Source: a virus
Lineage: Duplodnaviria > Heunggongvirae > Uroviricota > Caudoviricetes
Virus record (IMG/VR): IMGVR_UViG_2541047931_000005
Location: 1-33,086 of that record
Length of the DNA: 33,086 bases
Direction: 5' to 3' (one strand)
Part shown: positions 3,608 through 33,086 of the stretch, one piece after another
Layout of the letters: each line of letters starts with the position of its first letter
Position numbering within the stretch: position 1 is the stretch's first letter
Position numbers and translations under genes: made by a program
The notes under the pieces: model-generated
What the model saw: only the letters and a program-made list of their open reading frames with translations
What the model was told of the DNA's origin: nothing
The model's database searches: none

Positions 3608-3904
3608 ATGACACAAGCAAGTTACAGCAAGCCAACACAGCGAGAAATTGATCGCGCAGAAACTGATTTACTCATCAACCTGTCAACGCTTACCCAGCGC
3701 GGTCTGGCAAAGATGATTGGCTGTCATGAATCGAAGATAAGCAGAACGGACTGGAGATTTATTGCTTCGGTCTTGTGTGCTTTCGGAATGGCATCAGACA
3801 TCAGTCCGATTAGCAGGGCTTTTAAGTATGCGCTTGATGAAATCACAAAGAAAAAATCCCCGGCCGCCACCGAGGATTTTAAGCAAATTGATATGCAATT
3901 CTGA
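3608..3904 (+). CDS. cII: CII-like transcriptional activator
   Basis: 98-aa ORF at the cII position; HTH-like core (SKISR) and a C-terminus [17 protein letters not shown] resembling lambda CII (KKRPAATERSEQIQMEF). Confidence 0.8.
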
Positions 3905-26108: not shown

Positions 26109-26498
26109 TTAACATTTTCTTTTTACTTTTCCAACAAAAGCTTTGGTTGAATCCATATTCCCATAACCAGAAATGGTTTTTGACATTAAAACTGTTCCAG
26201 TAGGATGTATTACCCATGAGTCGATAACGCGTTGAGTTTCGCCATTCGCGCCGATTCCTATGATGGAGTTTTTAGACAATGCTTTGTAAGCCATGCCGCC
26301 CGCATCTGTCCCAGAATATGTGATGCTGGCATCTTCACCGCTTGTCTTAATGATGAATGTTCCACTAAAACCATCTTCTTCCGGATGGAAATTATTTCGT
26401 TCTGAATAGCTTATTCCGCGCATATCTCCAACGACCCAGCACTCTGCTGTAGCCCCAAAAGATATGAATAAGAACATAGCAGCAAGAAATTGCTTCAC
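26109..26498 (-). CDS. Small secreted (Sec signal peptide) protein of unknown function
   Basis: GTG start at 26498 preceded by AAGGAG; N-terminus KQFLAAMFLFISFGATA then ECWVV... (predicted cleavage after ATA); about 110-aa mature protein with Cys near both ends. Confidence 0.55.
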   Translation of the reverse strand: MKQFLAAMFLFISFGATAECWVVGDMRGISYSERNNFHPEEDGFSGTFIIKTSGEDASITYSGTDAGGMAYKALSKNSIIGIGANGETQRVIDSWVIHPTGTVLMSKTISGYGNMDSTKAFVGKVKRKC

Positions 26499-26528
26499 AC
26501 CAAGCTCCTTAGTTTTGAGCAGGATACC

Positions 26529-26894
26529 ATGAAAAAAGTTAACATTGGAAACGTACCAAAGATGCTCGTTCCGCTCTTTGAGAGCGGTACAATTGTGTTT
26601 TGTAGAGACTTTCCAGAATGGCAACGCCTGCATCAAAAACTTGGCGTTGACGTGCATGACTCGGACGCCAACGGAGCGTCTCATACAATGAGCAGCGAGA
26701 ATGGTGTTTTGCATGTGATAGGCGTGTTCAATGGCAAACTATCTACTATTGCCCATGAGTGCGCTCACATGGCATTCGATATCTGCTCAAGGGTCGGTGT
26801 TGATGTTGAACCAGGAAGAGCCAATGAGACTTACTGCTACTTAATGAGCAGGCTTGTTGAGTTCTGCGAGCGACATATCAAAAAGCCGGAGTGA
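26529..26894 (+). CDS. HExxH-motif protein (putative zinc-metallopeptidase-like), unknown family
   Basis: 121 aa from ATG 26529; HECAH at 26754-26768; divergently arranged with the secreted-protein gene. Confidence 0.6.
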   Translation: MKKVNIGNVPKMLVPLFESGTIVFCRDFPEWQRLHQKLGVDVHDSDANGASHTMSSENGVLHVIGVFNGKLSTIAHECAHMAFDICSRVGVDVEPGRANETYCYLMSRLVEFCERHIKKPE

Positions 26895-26901
26895 CCCGGC
26901 T
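26879..26901 (-). terminator. Hairpin terminator for the small minus-strand gene (overlaps the HExxH gene 3' end)
   Basis: Minus strand AGCCGG-GUCACU-CCGGCU followed by UUUUU. Confidence 0.5.
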
Positions 26902-26907
26902 TGAGTA

Positions 26908-27087
26908 TTACTTTTTGCTGTCTGGAGTTCGCTTATCCAATACCCAGCCATGACCTGGCTTTGTTGTTGGTGGAAGCCTTTCGTTGTCCTTGACGGTTGC
27001 AAAATTGTCTTTCTTACCGCCGCGTGGGCCAACTTCTTGGTATATTCCGCCGTTTTTTCCTGTGTTTTCACCTGGTTTTTTCGCCAT
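26908..27087 (-). CDS. Small basic glycine-rich protein (59 aa), unknown function
   Basis: MAKKPGENTGKNGGIYQEVGPRGGKKDNFATVKDNERLPPTTKPGHGWVLDKRTPDSKK; ATG at 27087 with GAGG RBS 6 nt upstream. Confidence 0.5.
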   Translation of the reverse strand: MAKKPGENTGKNGGIYQEVGPRGGKKDNFATVKDNERLPPTTKPGHGWVLDKRTPDSKK

Positions 27088-27177
27088 GATATACCTCAAC
27101 ATATACCCGTTATTGGGCGATTAAATATTGATCTCATTTTATAAGTAGTCAATATGGCCCAGGTAAATGCAAAAATT

Positions 27178-27203
27178 AACCCACCGTCAGGTGGGTTTTT
27201 TTA
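27178..27203. terminator. Hairpin with flanking A/T tracts (possible bidirectional terminator)
   Basis: AACCCACC-GTCAG-GTGGGTT followed by T7 on the plus strand and preceded by an A-tract. Confidence 0.5.
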
Positions 27204-27234
27204 TCTTCTCTACTTTAAAGATTAAGGAAATACC

Positions 27235-27420
27235 ATGACCATAGAAGAACGTCTGAACAACATTGAGTTGAATCAAACCCTGCTTGACCAGCGACTTTCA
27301 GATCTTGAGCTTAAAGATCTAGATGTGCAAATATCAGAAGCAGAAGCCAAGCTCTCCAGCTTAAACCACCGCAGGAAGCAAATCCGCGACAGAATTACTC
27401 GTGGACGCGGAGGCTGTTAA
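27235..27420 (+). CDS. Small coiled-coil protein (61 aa)
   Basis: MTIEERLNNIELNQTLLDQRLSDLELKDLDVQISEAEAKLSSLNHRRKQIRDRITRGRGGC; AAGGA RBS; heptad-like leucine spacing. Confidence 0.5.
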   Translation: MTIEERLNNIELNQTLLDQRLSDLELKDLDVQISEAEAKLSSLNHRRKQIRDRITRGRGGC

Positions 27421-27497: not shown

Positions 27498-28034
27498 TCA
27501 AACAACCCACCAGTTTGCCTGATTGGATACCAGCCTTGCAGTTTTTATGGAATTAATTATGCCATGCTCAAGAGCCTTGTTAGCATCCAAAATGGTCGAG
27601 TCTGCTATCAGGGATGCCCACCTAATATGGGTTCCGATGTCGATATTGAACGTCTCAACGAAGCGATCAAGATCGTTATCGAGGCATTTCCCGTACTCTC
27701 TCAATCTGGCATGGTCGGCGGCTGGGGAGGCAAAGCACCATAATAGAGGATGTAACAGGAATCTTGATAATGGGTTTGCGAAACGTTCTGAGCCAGCCAG
27801 GAAAACGATATTAGCTATGGATTCAACATTGCTTATGTTGTGAGTTCTAACGGTAACAGGGAGTGACTTAAGAAAGTTATACGCAGTAAAGCCAGCGGCA
27901 GTTTCCCCTCCCTGACTTGATATATGGATATTTAATTCAGTTGCGCCTTGAGATAATGCGGTGAGACAGTGGTTCTGAAGTTGCCCAACAGTGGCAGTGT
28001 TAACGGGGCATAAGAAATGAATTGTGTGCAGCAT
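27498..28034 (-). CDS. ClpP-like (S14 family) serine peptidase homolog
   Basis: 178 aa; ISSQGGETAAGFTAYNFL matches the ClpP xSPGGxxxAGxxIYD region; plausible Ser (ESIAN), His (LLHPL), Asp (ADSTILDA) triad positions; start overlaps the Mnt-like stop (TAATG). Confidence 0.7.
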   Translation of the reverse strand: MLHTIHFLCPVNTATVGQLQNHCLTALSQGATELNIHISSQGGETAAGFTAYNFLKSLPVTVRTHNISNVESIANIVFLAGSERFANPLSRFLLHPLLWCFASPAADHARLREYGKCLDNDLDRFVETFNIDIGTHIRWASLIADSTILDANKALEHGIINSIKTARLVSNQANWWVV

Positions 28035-28288
28035 TATTTATCATCCTTGCCATAAATCTTTTTAAGTGTCTCAAACACAACGGCCTTGAACTGCTCTGCT
28101 TGCTGATCAGCCAAGCGTTCAGCTTCGTCTCGATAGCCTGCAATCGGTGATGGCTTTGAGAGAGCATCCTGAACGATTTGTAATAACTCAGAGTTCATTG
28201 ACCTTCCGTTAGCCTCTGCTCTTAATTTCAATTTTTCTCTTACTTCCAAAGGCATACGGAAGTTAAAGTGCGGATCGTTTCTAGCCAT
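28034..28288 (-). CDS. mnt: Mnt-like ribbon-helix-helix repressor
   Basis: 84 aa; MARNDPHFNFRMPLEVREKLKLRAEANGRSMNSELLQIVQDALSKPSP... closely resembles P22 Mnt. Confidence 0.85.
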   Translation of the reverse strand: MARNDPHFNFRMPLEVREKLKLRAEANGRSMNSELLQIVQDALSKPSPIAGYRDEAERLADQQAEQFKAVVFETLKKIYGKDDK

Positions 28289-28311
28289 GCCATCACCCCA
28301 AGTTAGTATCT

Positions 28312-28569
28312 CTAACTTTCGTCTTTATTGTTGCCATACATGCATTTCAACTTCTCAACATCATGTTCAAGATCTATCAATCGTGATGCTATAGTTGCAA
28401 GGTCTAGTGCTTGAATGTGTTTATTTTTTTCTGTCCACGCTTCAAGTGCCGCGACCATCTCAGCATTTAATGAACGAGAATTAGCCTCAGCCAGTTCAAT
28501 AAGACGTTCCTTTATCTCTACAGGAAGCCTCAGATTCACTTGAGGGTTTTTGTACTTACGATCAGACAT
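28312..28569 (-). CDS. Arc/Mnt-family ribbon-helix-helix protein (paralog 2)
   Basis: VNLRLPVEIKERLIELAEANSRSLNAEMVAALEAW; ATG at 28569 with AGGA 7 nt upstream (alternative GTG at 28575). Confidence 0.7.
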   Translation of the reverse strand: MSDRKYKNPQVNLRLPVEIKERLIELAEANSRSLNAEMVAALEAWTEKNKHIQALDLATIASRLIDLEHDVEKLKCMYGNNKDES

Positions 28570-28586
28570 CGGCACATCCTGAATAA

Positions 28587-28826
28587 TTATTTACCATACA
28601 TGGTCTTTAGCGTCTCAAGTAGCGCCTCTTTGAATTTATCAGCTTCTTGGTTAGCGAATCCTTCAAGTGAGCGAGAGCCATCAAGATTATCAACATGTTT
28701 TTGAAGGATAAGCACGATCTCTGAGTTCATTGATCTGCCGTTTTTATCCGCTTCTTGCTGAATGCGTTTCTTTAAATAGTCTGGAATCCTAATCCCCAAT
28801 GGACTGATATCTCTTGCACCTTTCAT
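28587..28826 (-). CDS. Arc/Mnt-family ribbon-helix-helix protein (paralog 3)
   Basis: MKGARDISPLGIRIPDYLKKRIQQEADKNGRSMNSEIVLILQKH...; ATG at 28826 with GGAGGAG RBS; N-terminus paralogous to the divergent Arc-like ORF. Confidence 0.7.
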   Translation of the reverse strand: MKGARDISPLGIRIPDYLKKRIQQEADKNGRSMNSEIVLILQKHVDNLDGSRSLEGFANQEADKFKEALLETLKTMYGK

Positions 28827-28844
28827 TTCTCCTCCTGCACGCTG

Positions 28845-28920
28845 TGCATAGCTACACAGTGTAGGCAAAAAAATTTTGACTTTAAATAAACACGGTGTAG
28901 TATTTAGTTATCACGGTGTA
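28845..28920. promoter_or_regulatory. Divergent promoter/operator region between the RHH operon and arc-ant
   Basis: Perfect inverted repeat CTACAC-A-GTGTAG (28850-28862) plus two direct copies of CACGGTGTAG (28891-28900, 28912-28921), with TTGACT and TATTTAGTTA promoter-like elements. Confidence 0.5.
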
Positions 28921-28934
28921 GCAAGTGAGGGGAA

Positions 28935-29075
28935 ATGAAAGTTAGAGACATCGCTCCATTAGGGATTCGTATCCCGCCAGAGATTAAAGAAAAATTGAAG
29001 GAAAAGGCTAAGGAGGAGGGCAGGTCTTTAAATTCAGAAATAGTGCAGCGTCTTATTCGCAGCCTAAAAAGTTGA
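28935..29075 (+). CDS. arc: Arc-like ribbon-helix-helix repressor
   Basis: 46 aa; [46 protein letters not shown]; RBS GAGGGG; directly upstream of ant as in P22. Confidence 0.7.
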
Positions 29076-29137
29076 AGCCCCAACTGCGGGAACAGTCAGG
29101 GCTTCGGTTGTCAGTAAATCCGTGGAGAAAAACCAAC

Positions 29138-30040
29138 ATGAATAGTATAGCAATTTTAGAAGCGGTGAACACCTCTTACGTGCCATTCAACGGTCAGCAA
29201 ATTATCACCGCCATGGCTGCCGGAGTTGCATATGTTGCGATGAAGCCAATCGTTGAAAACCTCGGAATGAGCTGGTCAACGCAGCAAACAAAACTCATGA
29301 AGCAGATTAGCAAATTCAACTGTGTTCATATGAACATGGTTGCCGCTGATGGTAAGCTTCGTAAGCTACTCTGCCTTCCTTTGAAGAAGTTAAATGGATG
29401 GCTGTTCAGCATCAACCCTGAGAAAGTTCGTGCTGACATCCGCGATAAACTGATTCAGTACCAGGAAGAATGCTTTACTGTGCTGCATGACTACTGGACA
29501 AAGGGAGAGGCAGCAAATGCACGGAAGAAAACATCTGTTGATGACAGGACTCCGCTTCGTGATGCTGTAAATATGCTAGTCAGCAAAAAGCATCTAATGT
29601 ACCCAGAAGCTTATGCAATGATTCATCAGCGTTTCAATGTGGAAAGTATTGAAGAGCTTGATGCATCTCAGATACCGCAAGCCGTAGAGTACATCCACAG
29701 GGTAGTGCTTGAAGGTGAATTTATCGGCAAACAAGAGAGGAAAGTCAACGAGCTTTCTGCAAAAGAAGCAAACAGCCTTGTATGGTTATGGGATTATGCC
29801 AACCGCTCACAGGCATTATTCCGCGAATTGTATCCGGCGCTAAAACAAATTCAATCGAACTATTCAGGCAGATGTCATGACTGCGGTTATGAGTTCTCCC
29901 GTATTATCGATATGGCGAGAGATGTTTTAATCAACCATACACGAGATGTTGATATTAATGAGCCAGGCGGACCGACGAACCTTTCAGCATGGATAAGACT
30001 TAAGAATAAAGAATTACCTCCTTCAGTACATAACTACTGA
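29138..30040 (+). CDS. ant: Antirepressor Ant (P22 Ant-like)
   Basis: 300 aa from ATG 29138 ([21 protein letters not shown]...), same length and N-terminus as P22 Ant. Confidence 0.9.
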
Positions 30041-30140: not shown

Positions 30141-33086
30141 ATGAGAGACATTACAGCCAATGTGATCGTATCGATGCCTTCGCAACTCTTCACTATGGCG
30201 CGTTCTTTTAAAGCCGTAGCCAATGGCAAAATTTATATCGGTAAAATTGACACTGACCCTGTAAATCCTGAAAACCAGATTCAGGTTTATGTGGAAAACG
30301 AAGACGGCTCTCACGTTCCTGTTTCGCAACCAATCATCATTAACGCTGCTGGATATCCTGTATATAACGGACAGATTGCCAAATTCGTAACTGTGCAAGG
30401 CCATTCTATGGCTGTTTATGATGCGTATGGTGCGCAGCAGTTCTATTTTCCGAATGTGCTGAAGTATGATCCTGATCAGTTACGGCGGCAATTAGAAGAC
30501 CCAGATGGAGCGAATAAATACCCAAAACTTCAGATAGCAAGATGGAGAGACAGTTATGATGTAAGAGGTTGGGGGGCTATTGGTGATGGTGTTCATGATG
30601 ATACATCAGCTCTATCAGAATTACTTTCTGTTGCAACAGGTGGTGAAAAGATAGATGGGCGAGGGCTTACTTTTAAAGTATCAAATCTTCCGGATGTCAG
30701 TCGATTTAAAAATGCTCGTTTTTTATTTGAGAGAATACCGGGTCAGCCTCTTTTTTATGCTTCTGAAGATTTTATCCAGGGAGAGTTATTTAAAATTACA
30801 GATACACCGTGGTACAACGCCTGGACGCAGGATAAAACGTTTGTATATGACAATGTCATCTATGCGCCTTTTATGGCTGGAGACCGCCATGGTGTAAATA
30901 ACCTCCATGTTGCATGGGTTCGCTCAGGAGATGACGGGAAGACCTGGACAACGCCGGAATGGCTTACAGATTTACATGAAAACTATCCCACAGTTAACTA
31001 TCACTGCATGAGTATGGGGGTTGTCAGAAATCGCCTTTTTGCTGTAATTGAGACGCGGACCGTGAGAGGAAATAAACTGCAGGTTGCAGAGTTGTGGGAT
31101 CGCCCAATGAGTCGCAGCCTTCGCGTTTATGGTGGTATAACGAAAGCAGCAAATCAGCAAGTCGCTTATATTCGCATTACTGATCACGGATTATTTGCTG
31201 GTGATTTTGTCAACTTCTCAAACTCTGGTGTTACAGGTGTTACCGGGAATATGACGGTGACTACTGTTATTGATAAAAATACTTTTACAGTTACGACGCA
31301 AAATACCCAGGATGTGGATCAGAATAACGAGGGTAGATACTGGAGTTTTGGTACATCATTTCACTCGTCACCATGGAGAAAAACCAGTCTTGGAACTATT
31401 CCTTCTTTTGTTGACGGAAGCACTCCTGTTACTGAGATTCACAGTTTTGCGACGATTAGCGATAACAGTTTTGCTGTTGGCTACCATAATGGTGATATTG
31501 GTCCACGCGAGCTTGGGATACTCTATTTCTCTGATGCTTTCGGTTCTCCTGGTAGCTTTGTTCGCAGACGCATACCTGCAGAATATGAGGCGAATGCATC
31601 TGAGCCATGTGTAAAATATTATGATGGCATTCTGTATCTGACGACCAGGGGGACATTAAGTACTCAACCCGGTAGTTCATTGCACAGAAGCTCTGATTTA
31701 GGTACATCATGGAATTCTCTTCGCTTCCCAAATAATGTTCATCACTCAAACCTTCCTTTTGCCAAAGTTGGCGATGAGCTGATTATTTTTGGCAGTGAGC
31801 GCGCATTTGGTGAGTGGGAAGGAGGAGAACCTGATAACCGTTATGCAGGAAATTATCCAAGAACATTTATGACCAGAGTTAACGTCAATGAGTGGAGTCT
31901 GGATAATGTAGAGTGGGTTAATGTTACTGATCAGATTTATCAGGGCGGAATAGTTAACTCTGCGGTTGGTGTTGGTTCAGTTTGTATCAAAGACAACTGG
32001 CTGTACTACATTTTCGGTGGGGAAGACTTTCTAAACCCATGGAGCATAGGGGATAACAACAGAAAATATCCTTATGTTCACGATGGTCACCCGGCTGATT
32101 TATATTGTTTCAGGGTGAAAATCAAACAGGAAGAATTTGTTTCAAGGGATTTTGTCTACGGAGCCACTCCTAACAGAACGCTTCCTACTTTGATGTCGAC
32201 GTCAGGCGTGAGGACGGTTCCTGTACCCGTTGATTTCACAGATGATGTTGCCGTCCAGTCACTGACTGTCCATGCAGGTACATCAGGACAAGTTCGCGCG
32301 GAAGTCAAACTTGAGGGTAATTACGCCATTATTGCGAAGAAAGTACCGTCTGATGATGTTACCGCTCAGAGATTAATCGTTAGCGGCGGTGAAACAACGT
32401 CTTCAGCAGATGGTGCAATGATAACGTTGCATGGTTCCAGAAGCAGTACTCCACGTCGCGCGGTATATAACGCACTCGAACATCTTTTTGAGAACGGAGA
32501 TGTTAAACCTTATCTTGATAATGTAAATGCTCTTGGTGGTCCGGGAAACAGGTTCTCGATAGTTTATCTTGGCTCCAATCCTGTGGTTACCAGTGACGGA
32601 ACATTAAAGACAGAGCCGGTCTCTCCTGACGAAGCATTGCTGGATGCCTGGGGTGACGTCAGGTATATCGCTTATAAATGGCTGAACGCTGTCGCTATAA
32701 AGGGGGAAGAAGGGGCGAGGATACATCATGGTGTAATCGCGCAGCAACTTCGTGATGTTCTTATTTCTCACGGACTCATGGAAGAAGAAAGCACAACATG
32801 CCGCTATGCCTTTCTTTGCTATGACGATTATCCCGCAGTATATGATGACGTCATTACTGGCCAAAGGGAAATGCCGCTGACTGATAATGACGGGAGCATC
32901 ATTGTTGATGAGGATGATAATCCAGTGATGGTAATGGAAGACATCATTGAGCGCGTTGAAATAACGCCAGCAGGATCTAGATGGGGGGTCAGACCTGATC
33001 TCTTATTCTATATCGAGGCGGCATGGCAGCGCAGAGAAATGGATAAGATAAAAGCTAGGTTAGACTTAATAGAAGGGAAGCACTAA
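30141..33086 (+). CDS. Tailspike: P22-type head-binding N-terminal domain fused to a sialidase-like (endosialidase-type) body and C-terminal chaperone-like domain
   Basis: N-terminal about 120 aa resemble P22 gp9 ([13 protein letters not shown]...[38 protein letters not shown]...[14 protein letters not shown]...VLKYDPDQ); two Asp-boxes SGDDGKTW (30924-30947) and SSDLGTSW (31689-31712). Confidence 0.85.

Follow-up and report, generated by a model that had tools for sequence, protein, structure and literature searches.

A phage-borne short ClpP homologue overlapping mnt in the immI region of a P22-like E. coli prophage

The window analysed here is a stretch of 33,086 nucleotides (nt) of tailed-phage DNA (IMG/VR record IMGVR_UViG_2541047931_000005, positions 1 to 33,086), and the gene in question, at 27498..28034 on the minus strand, encodes a short, N-terminally truncated ClpP paralogue of 178 amino acids (aa), recognized by its open reading frame (ORF), by a match to Pfam PF00574 and by its likeness to the structure 9UXT. 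Immediately before it on the same strand lies mnt1 (28034..28288), the gene for an 84-aa homologue of the P22 repressor Mnt, a protein of the ribbon-helix-helix (RHH) type. The Mnt1 protein matches Pfam Arc (E 3.4e-27) and Repressor_Mnt (E 3.8e-12), is 77% identical to P22 Mnt, and carries the P22-type DNA-reading strand PHFNFRMP. Direct reading of the sequence shows that the two genes meet in a TAATG at 28032..28036 (CATTA on the plus strand), where the mnt stop codon TAA (28036-28034) and the ATG of the ClpP-like gene (28034-28032) have one base in common. An AAGGA at 28044..28048 on the minus strand, within the final mnt codons (encoding YGKDDK before the stop), lies 9 nt from this ATG and would serve as a Shine-Dalgarno element for it; it is kept in every variant of the junction. 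A preliminary description of this DNA had reported a 178-aa ORF of the ClpP fold overlapping the stop codon of an Mnt-like RHH gene, and the ORF, the TAATG, the Pfam matches (CLP_protease for the one protein, Arc and Repressor_Mnt for the other) and the structural alignment to known ClpPs bear this out. The Mnt-like gene is present and coupled as described, but it is the last of three tandem Mnt-like genes rather than a single one.

The junction, ...AAGGATGA(A/T)AAATAATG, was found again in 38 independent loci, and because the same junction recurs in this way the overlap between mnt and the ClpP-like gene is not a matter of chance. In 36 loci, of P22-like and lambda-like phages, the end of an Mnt-like ORF coincides exactly with the ClpP start; the ClpP-like proteins there are 79–100% identical to that of the window and include those of Pectobacterium prophages (79%); the exceptions to this exact abutment are rearranged copies, such as an insertion sequence (IS)-associated deletion in phage E212. 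About 300 nt past the stop codon of the ClpP-like gene, a terminator scan of both strands located a bidirectional terminator-like hairpin (27178..27197) that likely marks the end of the mnt–clpP transcript. Consensus scans for promoters and terminators around the window gene and three lone copies from other phages gave counts not above those in shuffled sequences, and base composition showed no shift that would set the ClpP-like gene apart as foreign.

The setting is a true immI region, with mnt, arc, sar and ant arranged divergently in the interval that separates the ejection-protein genes from the tailspike gene. On the plus strand, arc (28935..29075) encodes a 46-aa Arc homologue (Pfam Arc, E 5.2e-13), and the antirepressor gene ant occupies 29138..30040, counted from the P22-like ATG at 29138 (the longest ORF begins at 29072); its product matches P22_AR_N (E 4.9e-45), P22_AR_C (E 4.7e-27) and PHROG 245. 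The antisense RNA sar, on the minus strand at 29070..29137, scores 95.6 bits against Rfam RF00262, for which the gathering score is 43. A gene for a gene-16-like ejection protein flanks the region on one side and the tailspike gene on the other, and the head genes of the phage are those of a P22-type portal, scaffold and coat. The order and orientation of arc, sar, ant and the gene for a P22-type Mnt, and their placement with the gene 16 homologue on one side and the tailspike gene on the other, are thus those of P22. The two regions differ in what follows mnt: P22 has orf59a and sieA there and no ClpP gene, whereas the window has the short ClpP gene behind mnt1 and no sieA, although its match to P22 begins at the start of sieA. 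They differ also in the three tandem mnt alleles of the window and in its lack of a P22-type Omnt operator. The departure from the canonical P22 layout that the preliminary description pointed to is therefore real.

The protein belongs to the ClpP fold by several measures. It scores 44.4 bits against Pfam PF00574 CLP_protease (cut-off 20.2; E 2.2e-11), aligning with profile positions 37-180 of 182, and an AlphaFold2 model of the monomer (pLDDT 92, pTM 0.88) superimposes on the ClpPs of E. coli, S. aureus and T. thermophilus with TM-scores of 0.81-0.83 (about 0.82 for E. coli). The assignment of a ClpP-fold serine peptidase gene, made earlier from the letters of the sequence, is upheld by this profile score and by the fit of the model. 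The closest relative, which the preliminary description overlooked, is the short ClpP of Pseudomonas plecoglossicida, PpClpP1 (9UXT), which points to a mechanism other than those proposed there, a hybrid ring formed with the ClpP of the host. Over their full length the window protein and PpClpP1 share 40% identity (E 6e-45), and Foldseek aligns the model with 9uxt_A at a TM-score of 0.92 and a root mean square deviation of 1.8 Å. A profile built from 27 homologues, reaching down to 31% identity, matches 9UXT with an E-value of 5.6e-51, compared with about 1e-11 to 1e-13 or weaker for canonical ClpPs.

In the alignment with the MG1655 sequence of E. coli ClpP (MEROPS S14), Ser72 and His95 of the window protein correspond to S111 and H136 (precursor numbering), and these two residues, together with G42 and G43, are invariant across the 27 homologues. 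The third member of the E. coli triad, D185, aligns with Ser146, next to Asp145; the family as a whole has Ser or Ala at position 146, PpClpP1 has Pro there, and residue 145 differs from member to member. The Ser/His/Asp triad proposed in the preliminary description therefore holds for its first two members and fails for the canonical aspartate, a position that published mutagenesis has found dispensable in PpClpP1 (PMC12900304). Fold, PF00574 membership, the aligned Ser and His and the DH.R motif (D107/H108/R110) are common to the window protein and E. coli ClpP, but the two are only 26% identical, and the window protein begins opposite precursor residue 38; the first 37 residues, comprising the propeptide, the axial loops involved in gating and docking and most of helix A, are absent. 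At the other end, the window protein has a C-terminal extension ending in NWWV(xC) that is conserved in the family, absent from canonical ClpP, and modelled as a β-strand at residues 173-177. It is a matter of speculation that this extension might cover the unfoldase-docking surface.

PpClpP1 itself is N-terminally truncated; fourteen copies assemble into a homo-oligomer whose axial pore is dilated (PMC12900304). In its Ser-His-Pro “triad” the Ser and His are essential, its peptidase activity is about 13-fold below that of the canonical paralogue, and it does not bind ClpX (PMC12900304). Together with canonical ClpP, it assembles into a stable hetero-14-mer with higher peptidase and ClpX-dependent activity, in which ClpX is bound via the canonical ring and substrates are degraded faster (PMC12900304). 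The window protein resembles PpClpP1 in its length of about 180 aa, its start at the first core β-strand, the absence of an axial loop and of helix A, and the retention of Ser and His with a residue other than Asp in the third position. By analogy with the 14-chain cryo-EM structure 9UXT, it would be expected to assemble as a double heptamer. Both proteins fall into one common family: an exhaustive search returned 242 representatives of 50%-identity clusters at E ≤1e-30 (about 3,900 clusters at 1e-10), most of them 180-200 aa long and matching from about residue 3, and the short ClpPs thus constitute a sizeable, distinct family. The differences lie in genomic context, as PpClpP1 is encoded on the chromosome and the window gene on a phage, where it is coupled to mnt, and in the third position, which is Pro in PpClpP1 and Ser146, with Asp145 adjoining, in the window protein. 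In the 2026 study the short ClpP figures as a Pseudomonas paralogue encoded on the chromosome, and phages are nowhere mentioned (PMC12900304). The phage-borne proteins form a sister clade to PpClpP1; their genes are highly mobile, and one lineage of them is tied to a repressor of lysogeny maintenance.

A functional analogy can be drawn more widely with alternative ClpP subunits. Alternative subunits that work only in mixed rings are P. aeruginosa ClpP2 and those of the ClpP1/P2 systems of Listeria, Mycobacterium and Chlamydia. In P. aeruginosa, the alternative ClpP2 modulates ClpXP assembly (PMC13056064), and the common theme is a second paralogue without ClpX binding of its own that stacks on a canonical ring and modulates ClpXP (PMC13056064; PMC12900304). 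These subunits are host-encoded and about 200 aa long, whereas the window protein has fewer residues and comes from a mobile gene of a prophage. We considered whether the PpClpP1 clade might also be prophage-borne and rejected this, as its members P0070 and P0122 lie in ordinary chromosomal contexts. The Pseudomonas and Azotobacter genes of this clade (loci L092-L096) are found beside genes for KGG, CsbD and DUF6555 stress proteins, neighbours that hint at stress or stationary-phase regulation, a point absent from the PpClpP1 paper (PMC12900304).

A near-twin of the window protein (98.9% identical) is encoded in six deposited phage genomes, the carriers being the P22-like phages phiv205-1, E212 and EC.P3 and the lambda-like PhiR12 phages. 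Among complete E. coli genomes the gene is present in 128 of 5426 (about 2.4%), always on the chromosome and, in 127, at a nucleotide identity of at least 99%; the carriers include the type strain ATCC 11775 and APEC O1. Similarity to the window usually stops within mnt, about 40 nt inside its 3' end. Those Mnt proteins that are fused to the gene differ in their reading strands (PHFNFRMP, SPTTVRIP, SPLGIRIP or PQFKLRLP) and have a common C-terminal ...YGKD(D/E/N)K; what stays constant is therefore the ClpP-like gene together with the tail of mnt. As judged from these comparisons, the gene is conserved and under selection, with catalytic residues that are invariant and with near-identity in 128 genomes while the flanks vary. 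In PhiR12_5 (locus L002, 2525-4537) and likewise in loci L017, L020-L022 and L024-L028, the whole ant–arc/mnt–clpP cassette lies inside the tail operon, with gene L on one side and gene K on the other, and an OmpC-like porin gene is found near the immI cassette in some lambda-like carriers. In phage E212 (L004, 3668-3980), IS-related sequence has taken the place of the 3' end of ant, of arc and of mnt, leaving the last ~20 nt of mnt and an intact ClpP-like gene.

Beyond this clade the association with mnt disappears. A scan of IMG/VR recovered relatives on 114 viral contigs, and none of 47 phage loci whose protein is at most 74% identical to that of the window has an RHH gene within 2.5 kb; the Ant protein cluster likewise has no member in the neighbourhoods of these more distant phage copies. 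A partnership with RHH genes across the whole family was rejected on these grounds. A conserved association with RHH genes, one of the points on which the preliminary description would have its reading stand or fall, is thus seen in the 79–100% clade and is absent both from the 47 phage relatives and from the chromosomal Pseudomonas and Azotobacter members.

The copies at or below 74% identity are lone genes with ribosome-binding sites of their own, found in at least 31 distinct flanking contexts. Both neighbours (at least 100 aa) are antiparallel to the gene in 20 of these and parallel to it in one. One such site is the gap between Rz-like/endolysin genes and the terminase gene, the position of bor in lambda. 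In Proteus prophages the gene is inserted between N and erf/ssb; in Chromobacterium it has tail-fibre genes on one side and lysis genes on the other; and a further site lies in a tail module, flanked by the tape-measure and baseplate genes. In different phage backbones (L080 and L086-L089, with starts at 3611 or 4001) lone copies have a common block about 100 nt upstream, in which a terminator-like hairpin is followed by the palindrome ATGAAAATATTTCAT abutting a -35-like TTGAAT, then a -10-like ATATyA, and then a small hairpin before the ribosome-binding site. The palindrome occurs also as ATGAAATTATTTCAT and CTGATCAAATATCAG, and variant forms of the block are present in L050-L055 and L057-L069; the block looks like a portable regulated promoter. 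In a clade at 52% identity (L072-L078; for example L075, 3374-3922 on the plus strand), a 182-aa gene of PHROG 5483 is located directly upstream on the same strand. Its product contains RNKRSH, an Rx4H motif resembling that of HEPN proteins, and gave no match to Pfam or PADLOC; the two genes may form a cassette.

The gene is thus a highly mobile accessory gene, or moron, of temperate phages. As for lambda bor and P22 sieA/sieB, its presence varies among related phages (it is absent from P22), it occupies moron positions, and it is mostly antiparallel to its flanks. It differs from these morons in that its product is a subunit of a self-compartmentalizing protease and not a membrane or lipoprotein exclusion factor, and in that the gene of the mnt-coupled clade apparently has no promoter of its own and would be carried on the mnt transcript. 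That it encodes a phage-borne short ClpP of the PpClpP1 type and that it behaves as a moron are both very probable.

What such a gene does can be approached from its closest relative and from P22. In the P22 record, mnt is transcribed from Pmnt, and the annotation gives this promoter a role in maintaining lysogeny. Because the mnt promoter is active in P22 lysogens, the ClpP-like protein would be made while the prophage is silent, by translation coupled to that of mnt. Like PpClpP1, it would form heptameric rings unable to dock ClpX or ClpA; these might stack on each other, giving an open-pore peptidase of weak activity, or, as what we propose to be their chief action, on a ring of host ClpP. 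The resulting hybrid 14-mers would be capped by an unfoldase on the host face only, and ClpXP and ClpAP proteolysis in the lysogen would change in rate or range. Candidate benefits are a stabilized lysogeny, the exclusion of other phages, or a shift in host stress or virulence regulation, and the positions of the gene, which are those of exclusion and conversion morons, fit a role in lysogen benefit or exclusion. We regard the full proposal, a functional short-ClpP moron that is expressed in lysogens and supplies an alternative ClpP ring, as evenly balanced between right and wrong, and the hybrid-ring mechanism, drawn by analogy from PpClpP1, as possible but falling somewhat below that balance.

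Several considerations weigh against this proposal. The oligomeric state, the partnership with E. coli ClpP and the activity are all extrapolated from a chromosomal Pseudomonas homologue of 40% identity; expression in lysogens is likewise carried over from the biology of P22, the consensus promoter scans being uninformative. The ClpP-like protein matched none of the defence models of PADLOC-DB v2 at E ≤0.1. Furthermore, that one clade has the gene so tightly coupled to mnt points to a possible role specific to immI, which lies outside the general model.

Among other explanations, the one that survives best is superinfection exclusion or another anti-phage function, in which a peptidase present in the lysogen, alone or via host ClpXP, would destroy proteins of incoming phages, the gene standing where P22 has sieA or lambda has bor. 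The gene occupies classic moron and exclusion positions (after mnt, where P22 has orf59a and sieA; between Rz and terminase; between N and erf), its neighbours mostly run in the opposite direction, and it is very widely mobile. Arguing against this are the lack of a PADLOC defence model match, the silence of the literature searches, the non-defence contexts of the chromosomal Pseudomonas members, and the lack of any conserved partner gene for a sensor or effector. A known defence system was rejected, in that neither the ClpP-like protein nor the RHH proteins nor most neighbours gave a PADLOC match; nor did the analysis turn up any sign of the anti-defence function that the preliminary description had named as an option. 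We consider exclusion unlikely as an explanation in its own right; it concerns the benefit of the gene, however, and is compatible with the hybrid-ring mechanism.

The preliminary description had also suggested a protease acting on a repressor or antirepressor. As a dedicated protease of the immunity region, the short ClpP would tune the immI switch by degrading Ant, Arc, Mnt or c2/CI. The coupling by overlap with mnt in 36 loci, extending to Pectobacterium at 79% identity, agrees with this, as does the movement of the ant–arc/mnt–clpP cassette as a unit into the tail genes of the lambda-like PhiR12 phages. Against it stand the 47 phage loci without a nearby RHH gene or Ant cluster member, the location of the Pseudomonas and Azotobacter members beside chromosomal stress genes, and the retention of the gene in E212 despite the loss of ant, arc and mnt. 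Moreover, from what is known of ClpP, it is not obvious how a ring that lacks an unfoldase partner could select a folded substrate. With the RHH association confined to the 79–100% clade, we find such a role improbable.

A still slighter chance attaches to a catalytically weak decoy that poisons or sequesters host ClpP rings and so lowers ClpXP and ClpAP activity in the lysogen. The missing canonical Asp and the missing unfoldase-docking elements would suit such a protein, and PpClpP1 alone is indeed the weaker partner by the roughly 13-fold margin given above; but the invariance of Ser72 and His95 across the family implies selection for catalysis, and the hybrid of PpClpP1 with its canonical partner (ClpP2) is more active, not less (PMC12900304).

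Finally, a prohead (head-maturation) protease can be virtually dismissed: the best PHROG match is PHROG 94, “head maturation protease” (E 7.4e-21), and the GenBank record of phiv205-1 is annotated accordingly, but the protein scores only 49.3 bits against NCBIfam Clp_rel_HeadMat (NF045542; cut-off 120), the gene's place is in immI rather than in the head module, and it runs antiparallel to the late operon of a phage with P22-type head genes, lambda-like carriers have head genes of their own, and other family members occupy non-phage chromosomal loci. Heads of the P22 type, to our knowledge, assemble without a protease. The candidate was rejected on NCBIfam score, location, orientation and head-gene type. 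The label in the phiv205-1 record (L001, 4001-4537; MN340231, QGF19911.1) appears to be a misannotation by similarity transfer, which the present analysis corrects; the RefSeq/PGAP name for the same gene is “ATP-dependent Clp protease proteolytic subunit”.

Returning to the hybrid ring with host ClpP, its interest lies in the standing of the system that it would touch. ClpXP is among the best-studied regulated proteases, and E. coli has been treated as an organism with one ClpP; yet in about 2.4% of its complete genomes a prophage supplies the gene for another ClpP, a truncated one. Literature searches on short ClpPs of phages or prophages, on a link between ClpP and Mnt, and on CUS-3 relatives with a ClpP returned nothing relevant, and as far as these searches show, neither the mnt–clpP operon nor the moron behaviour of the gene has been described. 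Should hybrids with host ClpP form, prophages would have a direct handle on regulated proteolysis of the host, a new kind of lysogenic conversion. In its furthest extension, temperate phages of Enterobacterales would be spreading a gate-less ClpP ring as a lysogenic-conversion gene that stacks on host ClpP and reprograms which regulators ClpXP and ClpAP degrade, and how fast; the prophage would thereby be stabilized, rivals with ClpXP-sensitive replication proteins excluded, or host stress and virulence shifted, and, in P22-like and some lambda-like phages, the mnt operon wiring would have the protein made exactly when the prophage is silent. We hold this extended version to be rather doubtful.

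Upstream of the ClpP-like gene, the three tandem Mnt/Arc-like repressor genes (28034-28868, minus strand) contrast with a single one in other carriers and two in locus L015. Besides mnt1 they comprise mnt2 (28312..28575, likely ATG at 28569), an Arc/Mnt-like RHH gene by alignment and by its match to Pfam Arc (E 3.4e-10), with the reading strand PQVNLRLP, and mnt3 (28587..28826; Pfam Arc E 8.2e-8, again supported by alignment), whose Arc-like reading strand SPLGIRIP is the same as that of the adjacent Arc. In PhiR12 phages, the Mnt whose gene is coupled to the ClpP-like gene is almost identical to Mnt3. Gaps of only 11 nt (mnt3–mnt2) and 23 nt (mnt2–mnt1) leave no room for promoters between the mnt genes, and mnt3–mnt2–mnt1–clpP therefore look like one operon. 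Recombination at the conserved 3' end of mnt is the probable origin of the triple arrangement, which may widen immI cross-immunity against heteroimmune P22-like phages.

The divergent control region between mnt3 and arc (28852..28921) contains CACGGTGTAG twice, the palindrome CTACACAGTGTAG, and -35/-10-like TTGACT/TAGTAT on the plus strand. Motif matches number seven, against 1.1 expected, and four of them fall in this region. By analogy with Pant and Pmnt of P22, these elements are putative operators and promoters. A P22-type Omnt operator (AGGTCCACGGTGGACCT, allowing up to 3 mismatches) was found nowhere in the window, despite the P22 Mnt reading head of mnt1.

The product of the tailspike gene (30141-33086, plus strand) joins the head-binding domain of P22 to endosialidase domains and an S74 chaperone, a make-up that identifies the phage as a K1-capsule-specific, CUS-3-like relative of P22. 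On the other side of the ClpP-like gene, the position of P22 sieA (26109-27420) is taken by other small genes to which the PHROG matches assign no function: a protein of about 116 aa (PHROG 2651) within the minus-strand ORF 26109-26714, a 134-aa plus-strand ORF (PHROG 1365) within 26109-27420, a minus-strand ORF at the P22 orf59a position (26908-27102; PHROG 3202), and a convergent 61-aa ORF on the plus strand (27235-27420; PHROG 7586).

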